DNA of 63,610 nucleotides, filler included, from Nitrospinota bacterium (GTDB lineage: Bacteria > JAUXIQ01): NCBI GenBank assembly GCA_030620925.1. It is 14 parts of 14 records of this genome, joined end to end, with 100 filler letters (N's around TTAATTAATTAA, not from the genome) between each part and the next. Parts side by side here need not be neighbours in the genome. Positions count along the whole stretch, not along the records: positions 3,454 to 8,200 come from JAUXIQ010000203.1; 13 more parts are not named here. One strand, given 5' to 3'. Shown here in pieces: positions 2 to 8,301 of the stretch. Position 1 is the first letter of the stretch. Each line of letters opens with the position of its first letter. Made by a program: the position numbers and the translations under genes. Below the pieces are notes generated by a model. The model had not been told where the DNA came from. It saw only the letters and a program-made list of their open reading frames with translations, and ran no database searches.

Positions 2-193
2 TTACGCGGGGCCAGAGACGAGAGGACGGACAATATTATCACCTTCAATGCATCGGTGCGTTACAATCTTTACAAGTATTTAACCGCCCGCGCGGGGTAT
101 GACTTCGTGAACAAGAGCGTGGACCCGACGGTGCTTGATGTGAGGGAATACATGGAAAACCGGGTCACCGTTTCCCTGAACGGGACCTTCTGA
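2..193 (+). CDS. C-terminal fragment of an outer-membrane beta-barrel protein (5' truncated)
   Basis: Open frame 2..193, not in the ORF track: ...RTDNIITFNASVRYNLYKYLTARAGYDF...YMENRVTVSLNGTF*; alternating hydrophobic beta-strands and a terminal Phe. Confidence 0.75.
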   Translation, partial: LRGARDERTDNIITFNASVRYNLYKYLTARAGYDFVNKSVDPTVLDVREYMENRVTVSLNGTF

Positions 194-297: not shown

Positions 298-1503
298 TCA
301 GAGAAGCACTACCTCCACCTCCTCACCCTTTTCCAGCAGGTCCACCTGGGCGGGTATTTGGATATAACCGTCTGCGTCTGACATGCTGGTGATGGACCCC
401 GATTCCTTGAACGCGGGGTAAGCCTTCCCATCCACCACCCTTACCGTGTAGAACTGGTGGCGGCCGATGGTTGAGGTAAGCCGGCGTTCCATTGTGGCCC
501 TGACCGTCCGTTCCACCACCGGCGGGAGGTGAGCCATTCGCCTCAAGATGGGCAGCAGGATCATGTAGCCGTTGGAGAGGCAGGAGGCGGGATAGCCGGG
601 CATGCCCAGAACCAGCGTGTTCTCCACCTTCCCCAGGAGAGTGGGTTTCCCCGGTTTGACGGCGATGCCGTGGAAGAGGACTTCTCCGACCTCTTTCACC
701 ACGTCCACTATCACGTCGCGGGTGCCCACGGAGCTCCCCCCGGAAAAGATTATCATGTCATAGGAGAGGTTTTCTCTGATGGTCTTCACCATGGGTTCCA
801 TCCGGTCGTCGACCACAGGGTGCAGGTCCGCCCGGCCGCCGTGTTCGTTGATGACGGCGCCCAGGGTGTAGGAGTTTATGTTATATATCTGTCCCTCTTT
901 CAGTTTCCCTCCAGGCTCAGTTATTTCATCTCCGGTGGGGACGATCAGCATCCGCGGTTTCCTGAAAACTTCGGCCCCCGGTATCCCCAGGGCGGCCAGC
1001 GCGCCTATTTTGCTGGGGTTCAAGGCATCACCGGCATGCAGAACGGTTTCCCCGGGGGAAATGTCTTCGCCCTGTCTGGCGAGGTTTTCCCCCGGATAGA
1101 TGGGTTTATAGATGTTTATGCGGTCGCCCTCCTGTTCTGTGTCTTCCACCATCACCACCCCGTCAGCCCCTTCCGGCATCACCGCACCGGTGGCGATCTC
1201 GGAGCAGCGGCCGGAGGTGAGGGTAACCTCAGGCGTCTGGCCCGCGTATATCTTCTCCACGCAGTCGAGAACCACGGGGTTGAATTTTCCCGCCTTGAAG
1301 GTATCCTCCGCCACCACCGCATAACCGTCCATGGCCGCCCTGTCAAACGGGGGTACCGAGACGTTGGAAGTCATATCCCTGGCCAGCACCCTGCCACCCG
1401 CCTGAACGAGGTCCACTTCTTCGGTCTCTTCTATGGGCGCAGCCTGTTGATGACAGACTTCCAGTGCTTCCTCAAGTGATATCAGCGATTTTAGCGGTTT
1501 CAT
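298..1503 (-). CDS. moeA: Molybdopterin molybdo/tungsto-transferase MoeA
   Basis: PPFDRAAMDGYAV, IATGA.MPEGAD.VVM.E, SGGSSVG, KPGKP motifs. Confidence 0.95.
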   Translation of the reverse strand: MKPLKSLISLEEALEVCHQQAAPIEETEEVDLVQAGGRVLARDMTSNVSVPPFDRAAMDGYAVVAEDTFKAGKFNPVVLDCVEKIYAGQTPEVTLTSGRCSEIATGAVMPEGADGVVMVEDTEQEGDRINIYKPIYPGENLARQGEDISPGETVLHAGDALNPSKIGALAALGIPGAEVFRKPRMLIVPTGDEITEPGGKLKEGQIYNINSYTLGAVINEHGGRADLHPVVDDRMEPMVKTIRENLSYDMIIFSGGSSVGTRDVIVDVVKEVGEVLFHGIAVKPGKPTLLGKVENTLVLGMPGYPASCLSNGYMILLPILRRMAHLPPVVERTVRATMERRLTSTIGRHQFYTVRVVDGKAYPAFKESGSITSMSDADGYIQIPAQVDLLEKGEEVEVVLL

Positions 1504-1561
1504 GGGCTTCTCCTCATCTATGTCTCAGGGAATACGCCCCGGCTATTGCCCCATCAGGCCC

Positions 1562-2113
1562 TTACAGCCTGGGGAGGGTGATGTCTATCTGTTTGTCGTA
1601 TTTCCCTTTCTTGTCCTTATAGGAAAAGGTGCATACCTCGCTCCCTTCCAGGAAGAGCACCTGAGCTATCCCCTCGTTGGCGTAAATCTTGGCCGGGAGG
1701 GGGGTGGTGTTGGATACCTCCAGCGTGGCCGTCCCCTCCCATTCAGGCTCGAAAGGGGTTACGTTGACTATGATGCCGCAGCGGGCATAGGTGGACTTGC
1801 CCACACACAAGGTGAGTATGTTGCGGGGAATCCTGAAGTATTCCACCGTCCGTGCCAGGGCGAAGGAGTTGGGGGGGATGACCGCTACATCACCCTGGAA
1901 ATTCACGAAAGACCTCGAATCGAACTCCTTGGGGTCTACCGTGGTGGTGTAAACGTTGGTGAATATGTTGAACTCGTCGGCTATCCTGATATCGTAACCG
2001 TATGATGACAGCCCGTAGGAGATAACCCCGTCCCTGACCTGGCTGTCCACAAACGGTTCTATCATTCTGTGCTCGAGGGCCATTTCCTTGATCCACGCGT
2101 CATTTTTTAACAT
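1562..2113 (-). CDS. dcd: dCTP deaminase
   Basis: [35 protein letters not shown] motifs. Confidence 0.97.
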
Positions 2114-3453: not shown

Positions 3454-3454
3454 G

Positions 3455-4249
3455 GTCAGGATGGTGCTGGTGGACACCGGAAAGCAAATTATGCCCAGTA
3501 TCCCTCAGAAACTTGCCGCATACGCCCATAAATGCCTGACTAGTCGCGGCATCGAAGTGAAGCTGGAGACGGTCATCACCTCTGCGTCAGCCGGTGACGT
3601 GGAACTGCAGGATGGAAACCGTATCTCCACCCGCACCCTTGTCTGGACTGCCGGTGTTTCCTCAAATCCGCTGCTGGCTGGTCTCCCCTGCGGAAAAGAG
3701 AGAGGCAAAATTGTGGTGAACGATTATCTGGAGGTTCCTGAATATCCGGGGGTTTGGGCAATAGGAGACTGCTCCCATGCAATTGACCCCAAGACAGGCC
3801 GCCCATACCCCGCCGTGGCACAGCACGCAGTGAGACAGGGTAAACACGCAGCAGAGAATATCATCGCAGCGCTGCGCGGCCGAACCAAGAAACCCTTCCT
3901 TTTCTCTTCCCCCGGGCAGCTCGTCCCGCTGGGGCGTCGGTCGGCTATAGCTGAAATCTTCGGTCTTAAATTTCGTGGGTTCTTAGCATGGTGGCTATGG
4001 CGGACTATCTATCTTAGTAAGTTGCCGGGGCTGGAGAGAAAAACGAGGGTGGCCCTCGATTGGACCCTTGACCTGTTCTTCCCCAAAGACATCGTTCTCC
4101 TCAAAACCATGCTAAAAACTAATCGTGAGAGAGTCAAAGTCCAGGAGGATACCGAAAAGAAGGTAAACACCGGCACCCTGTTCGGAGCCGGACAAAAAAG
4201 TTCCTATACCATAAGGGCGGCGGACGCAGATCAGTCTGAAATGAAGTGA
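3455..4249 (+). CDS. ndh: Type II NADH dehydrogenase-like FAD oxidoreductase (5' truncated)
   Basis: LVWTAGV, WAIGD, AQHAVRQG, GFLAWWLWRTIYL motifs. Confidence 0.88.
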   Translation, partial: VRMVLVDTGKQIMPSIPQKLAAYAHKCLTSRGIEVKLETVITSASAGDVELQDGNRISTRTLVWTAGVSSNPLLAGLPCGKERGKIVVNDYLEVPEYPGVWAIGDCSHAIDPKTGRPYPAVAQHAVRQGKHAAENIIAALRGRTKKPFLFSSPGQLVPLGRRSAIAEIFGLKFRGFLAWWLWRTIYLSKLPGLERKTRVALDWTLDLFFPKDIVLLKTMLKTNRERVKVQEDTEKKVNTGTLFGAGQKSSYTIRAADADQSEMK

Positions 4250-5028
4250 AGAAGCGTCCGGTTGAATTCATCCGCTCTTTCGATATTGAACAGGTGTCCG
4301 CCCTCATCAAAAATACTCAACCGGGAGTCGGGTATCCTCTCCGCCAGCATCTCCGAATTCTCCGGCGGGACCAGGACGTCCCCCCGGGCCGCCATTATCA
4401 GGGTGGGAAGTTCCAACTGCGGCAGCTTATGGTAAGAATCGAACCCCATTACCGCCTGAAGCTGGCCGTTAAAGGAATGGTAAGTCTGCCTGGGATAATT
4501 CAGCTTGTCCTGCACGTACTTTTCCACCTCCTCAGGCCGCTCCCTGATGAACCCCTCGGTGAAAAGGATGGGCAAGGCTTTCCTTATTATCTCTTCATAG
4601 GTGAGGCCGGCGACGTCGGTGAGGGCGTCCATGACCTCCTGCTCAGCCTGCACGGAGCGATCAGGGCCGCAATGTGTAGCACAAAGGGCCAGCCGCCGGA
4701 CTCGCGAGGGATGGCTGATGGCTACCTCCTGGGCGATCATGCCCCCCATGGACAAGCCCACAACGTTCGCACTCTCAACATCGAGATGATCCATCAACCC
4801 CACCGCATCCTCCGCGAAGCGGCTGATGGAATAACCGTCCCTTGGCTTGTCTGTCTTCCCCGCGCCGCGATTGTCGAGGACAACGGTCCGAAAACGTGTT
4901 GAAAAGAAGGGCACCTGAAGACGCCAATCCATGTGCACGCTGGCAAAACCGGTTATGAAAACCAGCGCCTCTCCGCTCCCCGACTCTTCGTAATATATCC
5001 CAACATCATCGACTTGCGCTTTAGGCAT
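4231..5028 (-). CDS. Alpha/beta-fold hydrolase
   Basis: DNRGAG, GLSMGG nucleophile elbow, D..VP and GH catalytic motifs; start MPKAQV after an SD-like GAGGAG. Confidence 0.9.
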   Translation of the reverse strand: MPKAQVDDVGIYYEESGSGEALVFITGFASVHMDWRLQVPFFSTRFRTVVLDNRGAGKTDKPRDGYSISRFAEDAVGLMDHLDVESANVVGLSMGGMIAQEVAISHPSRVRRLALCATHCGPDRSVQAEQEVMDALTDVAGLTYEEIIRKALPILFTEGFIRERPEEVEKYVQDKLNYPRQTYHSFNGQLQAVMGFDSYHKLPQLELPTLIMAARGDVLVPPENSEMLAERIPDSRLSIFDEGGHLFNIERADEFNRTLLHFISD

Positions 5029-5273
5029 ACTCCGCTCCTCTCGCGTTTCATGAATCCCCCGGGGAAGCCACCGAGATGGAAAGACAGGCCACAATATATT
5101 AGCATAAAAGCCCCTATATGTTGGGATGGTAAAATGGGCATTGATAAAAAGTAGAGAATATGAGAGATATATCCATGATGCTCTCCGGCTTAAAGCATCG
5201 TAAATGCCGTTAAACCAAGACCGGGGCGGGCGCGGCCTGACCGCCGTGAGACCCGCTGAAGGGAGGAACCGAG

Positions 5274-5675
5274 ATGAGAAAAGACATAATACCTTTTACC
5301 GCTGACCTGGGCACCGAAGTTGCGTTCTCGAATGCCATAAAAGTGGAGAAGAAAGACCTCTCCAGCCTGTTGTTTATCTCCGGCCATGCTTCCATCGACG
5401 AAAAAGGCAACCTTGTGGGCAAGGGGGATATCAAGGCTCAGACCAGGCAGACCCTGGAAAACATGAAGTCGACGCTCATTAAATTGGGAGCCGATATGGA
5501 CGACGTAGTCAAAGTCACCGTATTTGTCACCGACATGAGCCAATTCAACGAAATACACGAGGTGCGCAGAGAATTTTTCAAAAAGGATAACTATCCGGCC
5601 AGCACTATCGTAGAGATTAACCGGCTGGCAAACGACGACCTCTTGATAGAAATCGAAGCCACAGCAGTGATCTGA
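5274..5675 (+). CDS. RidA/YjgF family protein
   Basis: FISG, Q..Q.LEN, DVVKVTVF, PAST.VEI..L, IEIEATA; SD GGAGG. Confidence 0.92.
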   Translation: MRKDIIPFTADLGTEVAFSNAIKVEKKDLSSLLFISGHASIDEKGNLVGKGDIKAQTRQTLENMKSTLIKLGADMDDVVKVTVFVTDMSQFNEIHEVRREFFKKDNYPASTIVEINRLANDDLLIEIEATAVI

Positions 5676-5715
5676 GACGGGACGTCGATTTCATAGTCAC
5701 ACTATCGGGGCATGA

Positions 5716-5737
5716 GGGCGGCATTATGCCGCCCCTA
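5716..5737. repeat. REP-like palindrome
   Basis: GGGCGGCAT-T-ATGCCGCCC followed by CTA. Confidence 0.55.
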
Positions 5738-5804
5738 TGAATAATATTGTCCCAAAGCGCTTACAGAAAGGCATGAGACAGCCTCTCCGAGGAATCAGCG
5801 ACCC

Positions 5805-7082
5805 ATGAGCTATCCCAGGATGGTAAAAATAAAGCAAGAATTTCCTAACACACGGCTGCCCGACGTAGCCCGGTCAGTTAAGGAAGAGCTCAGTCGCGTC
5901 AACCTGCAGGGACTGGTTAGTCCGGGCTGGGAGATAGCCATTGCCGCTTCCGCCAGAGGCATACGAGACCAGGCGGTGGTGATTAAATCGCTGGTGGAAG
6001 AGCTTCAAGCGCTCGGCGCCAAGCCCTTCATATTCCCGGCCATGGGTTCCCACGGCGGCGCCACGGCCGAAGGCCAGGCCACTTTTCTCAAAGGATATAA
6101 CATTACTGAAGAACTCCTGGGAGTCCCCGTGCGTTCCTCCATCGAAGCGGACCTGATAGGGACCTCAGAGCGGGGAGTACCCGTCTATGCAGACGGACAT
6201 GCCTGTAAGGCCCGCGGAATAATCCTGGTAAACAGGATAAAGGCCCATATAGACTTTGACGGCCCCCAGGAAAGCGGACTTTTCAAAATGATAACCGCCG
6301 GCCTCGGAAAACCCATAGGAGTGAAAAACTTCCACCTCTATGCATCTAAATACGGCTACCACAGCGTGATGCTGGAGATCGCCCGTTTCGCCCTTGAGCG
6401 GCTCCCGATAATATTAGGATTGGGAATAGTTGAAAACGCCCACGGCGAAACGGAAACGGTCAGAGCGCTGACAGCAGATGAAATAAATGAAGGTACTATC
6501 GAAGCAGAGCTGCTGAAGCGGGCGAAAGAGAACATGGCAAGGCTGCCATTAGAAGATATAGACCTCCTGATAGTCGATGAAATAGGCAAGGATATAGCCG
6601 GCTCAGGCCTGGACACCAACGTCATCGGAAGAAAAGGAGAAATTCACAACTGGCACAACCAGAAACCGAGTATAAAAAGGATAATCGTTCGCGGCCTCAC
6701 AGAGAAGACACAGGGAAACGCTTTAGGCATGGGCTACGCCGATTTCAGCACCGGTAAACTCGTAGACAGGATAGACCACCACCAGACTTACATTAACGCC
6801 ATCACCGCGCACGCACCTCACGAGGCGAAGATACCCTTGATTATGGAAAATGAAAAGAGCGCCGTAGATGCAGCTCTGAGCAGCGGCGGCGTCCACAAAC
6901 CTGAGGAAGCGCGAGTAGTGCGAATAAAGAACACCCTCGAACTATCCCTGTTCGAGTCCTCGGAGGCCTGCCTCCACGAGCTGGCAGGCAAAGATAACAT
7001 TCAAATAGTTGAAGAACTTGGGGAAATACAATTCGACGGGGAAGAAAACCTCCTTCCCATTTTTCAAAGGAAAAGAGTCTGA
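5805..7082 (+). CDS. Lactate-racemase N-terminal domain (DUF2088/LarA-like) protein
   Basis: PAMGSHGGATAEGQ, NRIKAH, SGL.KM...GLGK, GK.IAG.GLDTNVIGR. Confidence 0.8.
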   Translation: MSYPRMVKIKQEFPNTRLPDVARSVKEELSRVNLQGLVSPGWEIAIAASARGIRDQAVVIKSLVEELQALGAKPFIFPAMGSHGGATAEGQATFLKGYNITEELLGVPVRSSIEADLIGTSERGVPVYADGHACKARGIILVNRIKAHIDFDGPQESGLFKMITAGLGKPIGVKNFHLYASKYGYHSVMLEIARFALERLPIILGLGIVENAHGETETVRALTADEINEGTIEAELLKRAKENMARLPLEDIDLLIVDEIGKDIAGSGLDTNVIGRKGEIHNWHNQKPSIKRIIVRGLTEKTQGNALGMGYADFSTGKLVDRIDHHQTYINAITAHAPHEAKIPLIMENEKSAVDAALSSGGVHKPEEARVVRIKNTLELSLFESSEACLHELAGKDNIQIVEELGEIQFDGEENLLPIFQRKRV

Positions 7083-7111
7083 GCGTCCCAAAGGTGAGTA
7101 GTGCGGTTTTT

Positions 7112-8182
7112 TCAAAATGAAGAAGCGTCTATTATGGCGTCCACTGCGGGTCCAATGGCCTTTATTATACTTTCCCGGACGTTTTCATCAGTCCTCATGA
7201 TTTTGTTCAGAATTTCAAATAGCTGCGGGTTTGCCTCCTTCAACAACAACAGCGACCCCTCAGTAGAAGGATGTCCACCGTAACGGAGGCGTTCCAGCTC
7301 AAGTAGATACCCCTCCTTGGTGGGCTCCCCCCCCGTACCCCGCAGCTCGACCTTTTTGAGATACTCCAGCTCCTCTTCCCTCACCTGGAAGTCATGGAAG
7401 GTATCTTGATCGTAAATGAGTTCCTTCAGTCCCCCCGGAAACTCATAGAAACCGCTGTCCCCCATAGCGCGTTCACGCAATTGCTCTACAGCTTCCCAGG
7501 GTGTTCGGGTAAGGCCCTCACTCGCCCTCTCATCGCTGGGCTTCAAACGGTAGACCCGTATATTCTCAGACGAATCATCCAGGGAGATTTTCAGTATTAC
7601 CTCATTCATCCCCCTCTCATAAGACCAGTCTTTAAGTATGGAAAGTAATGAAAAAACGCGGCCATCGGGGCCCCGTTCTTCATCCTCGAATATCTCCAGC
7701 ATCCTGATGAAAGTGCGCCCGCTTTCAGCGTTCTTCACTTCCTCAATCATAGCGCCTGCCAACCGGTGTCGCCAATCCTCTTGAGCCAGCAGATCATCGG
7801 CCAGCGCGTTAATCCAGTAATCGAGCAGGAACTCACAGACCAAACCCTCTACCGAGCTGAAGCTGCTCCCCAAAAGTTCCTTTCTGAGCTCTTCCGAAGA
7901 AGTATGGGCGCGCAAATAGTCCCTGATCCGGGGATATACAGGCTCAGCGGCCTCGTAGAGATTATGAAACTCGTCGGGTAAAAATTCCCTCATCGCTTGC
8001 TCTTTGATTCCCAGGCGTGTCATTATTCTTAATAAAGCCCGGGGGCCGGGCTCTCGCCTCTTACGCTCTATCATCCCCAGGTAGGTCTCTGAAAACCCGC
8101 AGTGCAGGGAAGCTTCCCCCTGGTTCATCCCTAATTTATTCCTGGCCTCAATTATCAATTCGGCTAACTTGTCCTGGTCCAA
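7112..8182 (-). CDS. XRE-family HTH transcriptional regulator with a long insert and a DdrO-like C-terminal segment
   Basis: N-terminal AR.KLGMNQ...CGFSETYLGMIERKRREP HTH; TTG start 18 nt from the contig edge, so it may extend further. Confidence 0.8.
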   Translation of the reverse strand: MDQDKLAELIIEARNKLGMNQGEASLHCGFSETYLGMIERKRREPGPRALLRIMTRLGIKEQAMREFLPDEFHNLYEAAEPVYPRIRDYLRAHTSSEELRKELLGSSFSSVEGLVCEFLLDYWINALADDLLAQEDWRHRLAGAMIEEVKNAESGRTFIRMLEIFEDEERGPDGRVFSLLSILKDWSYERGMNEVILKISLDDSSENIRVYRLKPSDERASEGLTRTPWEAVEQLRERAMGDSGFYEFPGGLKELIYDQDTFHDFQVREEELEYLKKVELRGTGGEPTKEGYLLELERLRYGGHPSTEGSLLLLKEANPQLFEILNKIMRTDENVRESIIKAIGPAVDAIIDASSF

Positions 8183-8301
8183 AACAACACCCGTTTCTAA
8201 NNNNNNNNNNNNNNNNNNNNNNNNNNNNNNNNNNNNNNNNNNNNTTAATTAATTAANNNNNNNNNNNNNNNNNNNNNNNNNNNNNNNNNNNNNNNNNNNN
8301 G

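Follow-up and report, generated by a model that had tools for sequence, protein, structure and literature searches.

The repressor DdrO and the M78 peptidase IrrE (also named PprI) make up the radiation and desiccation switch of Deinococcus and Thermales. As described in PMC6868357, the C-terminal domain of DdrO has a new fold, and the protein is cut between L106 and R107, within a loop. Close homologues of IrrE and DdrO are reported in Deinococcota. According to PMC4374696, the motif E-L-x-G-x-R is strictly conserved in DdrO homologues, and PprI requires the E, the L, the G and the Arg at position 6. Other pairs of an XRE repressor and an M78 protein are CapH/CapP, ImmR/ImmA of ICEBs1 and Rir/Crh of phages. 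Here, we describe a repressor gene at positions 7112..8182 (minus strand) of a stretch of 63,610 nucleotides (nt) from a Nitrospinota bacterium (assembly GCA_030620925.1), whose product of 356 amino acids (aa) ends in a module resembling the C-terminal domain of DdrO, and compare it with these systems.

The whole stretch is referred to as the window. It is a chain of contigs from one genome, G000, with N spacers between them, and contigs on the two sides of a spacer are not genomic neighbours. The repressor gene is located on contig G000:C195 (window 3454..8200). The genome is 89.5% complete in 445 contigs, and its phylum is represented in the collection by two genomes: G000 and a sister genome, G001.

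We view the protein as a novel form of the COG2856/XRE switch, from a small family that is tied genetically to an HExxE branch of the IrrE/CapP-like M78 proteins. We lean, with some reserve, towards a repressor of this switch type that is built on the plan of DdrO, with an inserted domain of about 160 aa, an extended tail and an HExxE M78 partner. In our view it does not qualify as an orthologue of DdrO, since it lacks the cleavage motif, differs in size and shows no DdrO-type regulon in G000.

Domain layout and similarity to DdrO

The protein can be divided into three parts. Residues 1-67 (7982..8182, minus strand) form an XRE-type helix-turn-helix (HTH) domain. Pfam HTH_3 covers residues 10-60 with an E-value (E) of 3.2e-7 and 30.7 bits, against a cut-off of 23, which makes the protein a member of XRE/HTH_3. 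In the structure search VIA-align, XRE/Cro-type HTH domains are found with Z 9.4-7.0 over residues 1-70 of a full-length model, among them the N-terminal domain of CapH (7t5u). The second part is an inserted middle region, residues 68-227 (7502..7981, minus strand), modelled as helices followed by three strands and assigned to no recognised family. The third is a C-terminal module, residues 225-356 (7115..7510, minus strand), which the model folds into eight helices and which is common to the family, including paralogues without an HTH.

The full-length AlphaFold2 (AF2) model has a mean predicted local distance difference test score (pLDDT) of 65.2 and a predicted template modelling score (pTM) of 0.36, and its Foldseek and VIA-align matches are to the HTH only. 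In the middle region the pLDDT ranges from 36 to 86 by block, and when this region was compared with the protein atlas, no score exceeded 0.76, nothing thus reaching 0.8. No Pfam or NCBIfam family matches residues 70-356 at E<=1 except one row at chance level (mTOR_dom, E 0.26), and NCBIfam gives nothing above its own cut-offs for the repressor as a whole.

Two relatives place the middle region in the family. A protein of 210 aa (P0005) has the same HTH and C-terminal module and lacks residues ~73-229 in the alignment, and therefore the middle region is a unit of insertion or deletion. In a second relative of 390 aa (P0013), a single BLASTP segment spans residues 1-300 of the repressor, including the middle region, at 26% identity. 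Since P0013 aligns across all of these residues, the three-part layout is old, as judged from the alignment.

We modelled residues 225-356 separately, from an input of eight sequences (pLDDT 82.7, pTM 0.57). We take the weights of AF2 to be older than the DdrO entries of 2019 in the PDB. When this model is compared with 350,542 PDB chains using Foldseek, the first match is the C-terminal domain of DdrO (6ro6_G), with E 1.4, probability 0.84, a TM-score normalised by the target of 0.70, a root mean square deviation (rmsd) of 2.9 A and 28% identity over 56 columns. Further DdrO entries are at ranks 12 and 18, and the non-DdrO rows among those listed have probabilities of at most 0.08.

VIA-align, which is independent of Foldseek, also ranks DdrO first among 48,161 representative chains: 6jq1_A has Z 5.8 and an rmsd of 3.3 A over 55 aligned residues (19..78 of the model), and 6ro6_A is second with Z 5.0. 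According to the notes of the program, helical models commonly give Z-scores below 8. That two DdrO clusters should take the first two ranks of 48,161 by chance is unlikely, in our judgement and not by a formal test. The possible counterpart is the three-helix C-terminal dimerisation domain of DdrO, which comes first in both structural searches at weak scores. The resemblance covers residues 243-302 (7277..7456, minus strand), as seen in VIA-align, Foldseek and weak sequence alignments.

The sequence searches, which give weaker evidence than the structural ones, agree in placement. With phmmer against the PDB, residues 240-296 fall on residues 71-125 of DdrO 6jq1 with ELRG opposite ELRG. For the whole protein, this match has E 0.51; the C-terminal stretch on its own, with an independent E-value of 140, is not significant. 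A profile of 11 sequences (A10) has 6ro6_A, the C-terminal domain of DdrO, as the second of four PDB matches (E 0.86). A full-length profile places DdrO 6jq1 second of 32 matches with E 2.7e-4, by way of the HTH domain. The 186-aa paralogue in the sister genome (G001:C36) matches PDB entries through its HTH only, and Pfam gave nothing relevant for the C-terminal parts.

ELRG is found at residues 279-282 (7337-7348, minus strand), in a loop that joins the modelled helices 269-277 and 289-300. The motif is aligned with the ELRG at which DdrO is cut, and the loop corresponds to the DdrO cleavage loop.

Much of this had been foreseen in the original prediction, which was made from the sequence alone. 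The N-terminal XRE HTH is there, as is the unrecognised stretch after it, although this is about 160 aa long and not 180. The stretch FPGGLKELIYD...ELERLR is residues 248-300 (7283-7441), with ELRG where it had been placed. The DdrO alignment given there is reproduced with ELRG on ELRG, at the non-significant score given above. The proposed three-domain, DdrO-like repressor holds as a three-part XRE protein with DdrO at the top of both structural searches, and the suggested check by AlphaFold and Foldseek did return DdrO first; what falls short is the strength of the scores.

Relatives and M78 partner genes

Relatives of the repressor are rare. Four proteins are found at E<=0.001 among 5.8 billion clustered proteins and 13 among 1.84 billion representatives, of which six span the C-terminal module, and a search with a C-terminal profile returned three sequences. 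The close set consists of P0003 (71% identity to the repressor), P0004 (69%) and the fragment P0002 (99%). Searches for related loci found none in genome contigs or metagenome contigs with A1, and with A5 only the contig of P0013 itself. An improved profile (A7) matched three of 201 genomes: G000, G001 and G054, the last from another phylum. G054 gave a second, weak match (C24), with a stop codon inside it.

Six HTH genes that bear the C-terminal module have readable downstream DNA. At half of these loci, the next gene downstream is an M78 gene of the same orientation. At G001:C548, the gene of a 218-aa protein (P0010) overlaps by 4 nt an M78 gene of 220 aa, which matches PF06114 above the cut-off (E 8.5e-7). 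On the metagenome contig L013, a homologous M78 gene is located 535 nt downstream of the gene of the three-domain P0013. At G054:C4, a gene for 214 aa abuts an M78 gene. The other three loci are those of the repressor itself, its orthologue at G001:C80 and the 186-aa paralogue at G001:C36, which has no M78 gene downstream. The family of the C-terminal module is genetically coupled to IrrE/CapP-like M78 genes.

Further, G001 has a second M78 copy that is unlinked and has no XRE gene beside it. A related-locus search with A6 recovered the two M78 contigs of G001 and gave extra matches in two metagenome-assembled genomes (MAGs), one of them an ordinary XRE+HExxH pair (an Acidimicrobiia MAG) and the other a false match (a Bacillota MAG). 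Near the 186-aa paralogue, an ORF (open reading frame) at 1295-1639 (plus strand) of G001:C36 (L009) has the motif HELVN, as read by eye; M48/M56-type peptidases have HExxH at this place.

The M78 proteins of these loci belong to a subfamily of about 220-250 aa (L005:521-1183, L010:1269-1937, L013:1913-2611 and L022:813-1637 on the minus strand; proteins P0018-P0040). In the PDB, the M78 profile has IrrE 3dte_A (4.2e-6) and an IrrE orthologue, 8slm_A (1.7e-5), as its only matches below E 0.01, and no ImmA-type chain is found at E<=1. The proteins also match capP of PADLOC with E 9e-17 and 2.8e-8.

Gene model and candidate operator

The ORF list gives 356 aa plus a stop codon for 7112..8182, with a TTG start at 8182. 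The pattern M-[DE]-Q-[DE]-K-L opens three homologues at this same residue. Only 18 nt separate the start codon from the upstream edge of contig G000:C195, as had been noted at the outset when the 5' side was described as cut. The missing upstream DNA is supplied by another contig, G000:C366, whose end is identical to the 127 nt at 8074..8200. An in-frame TGA is read there eight codons upstream of the TTG, and the repressor gene is therefore complete. The contig junctions of the window, at 8201-8300 and 12 other places, consist of 44 N + TTAATTAATTAA + 44 N.

On G000:C366, a region of 317 bp separates the repressor gene from a divergent 100-aa ORF. It contains a candidate operator, a palindrome of 19 bp, ACGTTATTA-A-TAATAACAT (ACGTTATTAATAATAACAT). 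The palindrome covers a TATTAA box, likely the -10 region, and directly follows a TTGACA box (the boxes were found by eye). The half-sites ATGTCATTA, TAATAACAT and ACGTTATGA overlie a promoter-like site of the divergent gene, TTGACA-17-TATATT (11/12). The arrangement of these sites suggests that the repressor may regulate itself and the small divergent gene, with no genome-wide regulon.

The divergent ORF (G000:C366, L007, 2356-2658, minus strand) is Cys-rich, belongs to no Pfam family and has no match in G001. In the sister genome, the orphan M78 gene is followed, after about 400 nt, by a palindrome-like site with two mismatches (G001:C168 2333-2351). This is probably chance, as one site is found per strand against three control matches per strand.

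Weighing the alternatives

A number of observations speak against a DdrO-type switch with an M78 partner.

The first group concerns the fold. Each of the DdrO scores is weak when taken alone (Foldseek E 1.4, VIA Z 5.8, sequence E 0.5-0.9), an unrelated AAA+ lid domain, 3pvs_A, also reaches Z 5.0 in VIA-align, and a profile of seven sequences (A2) finds no DdrO in the PDB at E<=10. The module could then be a generic small helical bundle that resembles DdrO by chance, with ELRG a coincidence in a protein rich in Glu, Leu and Arg; low Z-scores being common among helical models and the poor conservation of ELRG (below) would both fit. We think this very unlikely. Two structure aligners and two sequence searches each rank DdrO first or second among tens to hundreds of thousands of chains, and the gene partner of the family comes from the very branch of M78 that contains IrrE and CapP.

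The second group concerns cleavage. ELRG is present in four of 12 family members, namely the repressor, P0002, P0003 and P0004, which are close orthologues of at least 69% identity; the remaining eight have QLMG, KVRG, KLRG or unrelated loops at this site. Of the 11 sequences aligned in A10, five retain E279, five R281 and seven G282. An aliphatic residue at the column of L280 (11/11) is the sole constant feature of the site, while the invariant residues of the alignment are E233, G251, L252, E271, L296 and R300. The repressor reads ELRGTG, without the Arg at position 6 that completes ELxGxR, an absence that was already pointed out in the original prediction.

The partner deviates as well. Of the 23 subfamily members found in a large database, 22 carry HExxE and the remaining one HEIAH, and the M78 proteins of the relatives show HEIFE-type motifs. 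HExxE is not a canonical zinc site, and because of this the protease activity of these proteins is unproven. Further, no M78 gene is detected in G000 at E<=10 with PF06114, with a single protein or with a profile of three sequences, although this same profile recovers its targets in G001 and G054. An IrrE-type protease, which has HExxH and a GAF-like domain, is not found in G000, and the sister genome has the HExxE form of about 220 aa. Absence from the organism is not shown, because the assembly is 89.5% complete in 445 contigs.

These observations could fit a mode of antagonism without cleavage, in which a protein that binds the module breaks the dimer. The HExxE M78 protein could be such a non-cutting anti-repressor, as reported for Rir/Crh, or a copy of the module without HTH could be a decoy, as in SinI/SinR. 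Non-proteolytic COG2856/XRE pairs are described in PMC6868357, and the lost second His, the variable cleavage site and the lack of a detected M78 gene in G000 are all as expected from such a mode.

Candidates for a decoy exist, as two further genes in G000 encode the C-terminal module alone (profile A7). One, of 121 aa, is at 1287-1652 (plus strand) of G000:C419 (L021), with E 6.8e-11, and is followed after 4 nt by a HIRAN-domain gene (1656-2048, plus strand; PF08797, E 5.4e-10). The other, of 84 aa, is at 1220-1474 (plus strand) of G000:C253 (L024), with E 3.3e-4. That they act as decoys by pairing with the repressor is speculation. Genes for PilZ and SnoaL-like proteins are found upstream of the 121-aa paralogue, and the 84-aa paralogue comes after genes for an HU-type DNA-binding protein and a PilZ protein, a layout that resembles that of C419.

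Against antagonism without cleavage stands the metal site itself: 22 of the 23 proteins in the subfamily retain the catalytic Glu of HExxE, and at the position of the third ligand of IrrE two of the three aligned M78 genes have Glu and one has His. Conservation of this kind suggests a changed but working metal site, and we consider a purely non-proteolytic mode rather doubtful.

The third group concerns the locus. The downstream neighbour of the repressor, in G000 and G001 alike, is a convergent LarA_N-like gene and not an M78 gene. The adjacency typical of COG2856/XRE pairs is seen at three of the six related genes and at neither the repressor, whose genome is incomplete, nor its orthologue. 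Both keep the same neighbours across two genera, namely genes for alpha/beta-hydrolase-like, RidA-like and LarA_N-like proteins; the hydrolase and RidA labels come from reading translations by eye. The LarA_N-like gene of the window (5805-7082, plus strand) encodes 425 aa with a weak match to Lar_N, the N-terminal part of lactate racemase (E 2.6e-6), and in G001 it is found in the same arrangement beside the orthologue, after the RidA-like gene.

Further, a search of G000 that allowed two mismatches found a single copy of the palindrome, at the promoter of the repressor itself, and no regulon is visible; in particular, the palindrome is not repeated before DNA-repair genes of G000 in the way of the radiation/desiccation response motif (RDRM). 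The count of promoter-like sites is no higher than in shuffled sequences (one found, 1.4 expected).

From this, one could picture a local regulator that senses a ligand. The middle domain would bind a small molecule, the C-terminal module would only dimerise, and the targets would be metabolic genes nearby or the divergent 100-aa gene; no M78 protein would take part. The conserved neighbours, the confinement of the palindrome to its own intergenic region, the lack of an M78 gene beside the repressor or elsewhere in the assembly, and the persistence of the 160-aa insert in P0013 at 26% overall identity are all in line with this. Nevertheless, P0013 has the same three-domain layout and does have an M78 gene downstream, the middle domain contains no recognisable ligand-binding family, and the genes next to the repressor are transcribed convergently to it, in neither an operon nor a divergent pair with it. 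We regard a ligand sensor of this type as unlikely.

The last point concerns the cellular setting. Both G001 and G054 have LexA with scores above the cut-off, and a LexA fragment is located at the end of a contig of G000; there is no sign of a lineage lacking SOS.

Several expectations of the original prediction are unsupported or weakened. Independence from LexA, which had been raised there as a possibility, has no support, LexA being present in the lineage. For the analogy with damage-induced switches, neither a damage regulon nor a second copy of the palindrome is seen in G000. The partner had been expected to be an HEXXH peptidase, and ELRG to be conserved among homologues; the relatives have HExxE, and ELRG is confined to the four close orthologues. 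It had been stated correctly that the window contains no M78 peptidase gene, and this extends to the rest of the G000 assembly. The idea of a protease-triggered system survives in part: the proposed search of neighbourhoods did reveal M78 genes at half of the related loci, including that of the distant three-domain P0013, and none at the repressor, at its orthologue or anywhere in the incomplete assembly of G000.

Proposed mechanism and implications

The domain layout, the likeness in fold and the coupling of genes in relatives are observations; dimerisation, the operator, cleavage, the signal and any role of the insert are proposals. If the switch with an HExxE M78 partner is the right description, the core of the C-terminal helical module would be a distant relative of the dimerisation and cleavage domain of DdrO. 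A domain of about 160 aa would have been inserted where DdrO has its flexible linker, and three extra helices would follow the core. The repressor would dimerise through the C-terminal module, and the dimer would bind the 19-bp palindrome at its own promoter and the related half-sites at the promoter of the divergent 100-aa gene. An IrrE/CapP-like HExxE M78 protein would then inactivate the repressor in response to a signal, either by cutting the loop that holds L280/R281 or by binding the module and breaking the dimer. In G000, the partner would have to be encoded elsewhere or in the part of the genome that is not assembled. In Deinococcus, irrE is likewise unlinked to ddrO.

A more far-reaching version is an undescribed IrrE/DdrO switch with multiple inputs, used by this lineage and a few others, where the 160-aa domain would be a sensor, the partner a conserved HExxE protein with an altered metal site, the copies without HTH decoy anti-repressors, and the HIRAN neighbour of one copy, a DNA-end-binding protein, a tie to DNA damage. 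We find this version improbable.

Were the preferred reading true, a DdrO-like module would be present in a distant and barely sampled phylum, where it could be fused to an extra domain, paired with a variant protease in which HExxE is conserved, and exist without an HTH. The design of the damage switch would then be older and more modular than thought, and the family would offer a natural test of how the protease recognises its target where ELxGxR is not kept.

Comparison with known systems

The systems discussed above share different features with the repressor. SinR/SinI is similar in that the oligomerisation domain of the repressor is also found as a separate small protein without HTH; neither sequence nor fold gives evidence of kinship.

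In ImmR/ImmA of ICEBs1 and Rir/Crh of phages, the gene of the XRE repressor and an M78 gene downstream of it form an operon, an arrangement like that at three of the six related loci, and the non-cleaving mode described for Rir/Crh provides a model for the HExxE partner. They differ in their setting. We rejected a mobile-element immunity repressor, as no integrase or phage genes were seen among the ORFs of the contigs and chromosomal synteny is kept in two genera. Further, the M78 proteins of the relatives are nearer to IrrE and CapP than to ImmA.

CapH/CapP, which regulates CBASS and other defence operons, also combines an XRE repressor with an IrrE-like M78 protein. The M78 genes of the relatives match capP, and the HTH of the repressor matches capH weakly (E 0.0013, residues 2-68). 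On the other hand, no defence operon is seen beside any copy on these short contigs.

In the comparison with DdrO/IrrE, several differences are seen. DdrO has about 130 aa in two domains joined by a short flexible linker, while the repressor has 356 aa with a 160-aa insert and a C-terminal extension of 54 aa, which contains the three extra helices. The repressor departs from ELxGxR, G000 shows no RDRM-like regulon, and the M78 partners of the relatives have about 220 aa and HExxE. The lineage is a phylum apart from Deinococcota, where the close homologues have been published. The similarities are that in both repressors an XRE HTH at the N-terminus precedes a helical C-terminal domain, for which DdrO is, at weak scores, the best structural match in the PDB; that ELRG of the repressor is located in the loop before the last core helix, as is the cut site L106/R107 of DdrO; that the genes of repressor and protease can be unlinked; and that the best PDB match of the M78 proteins of the relatives is IrrE.

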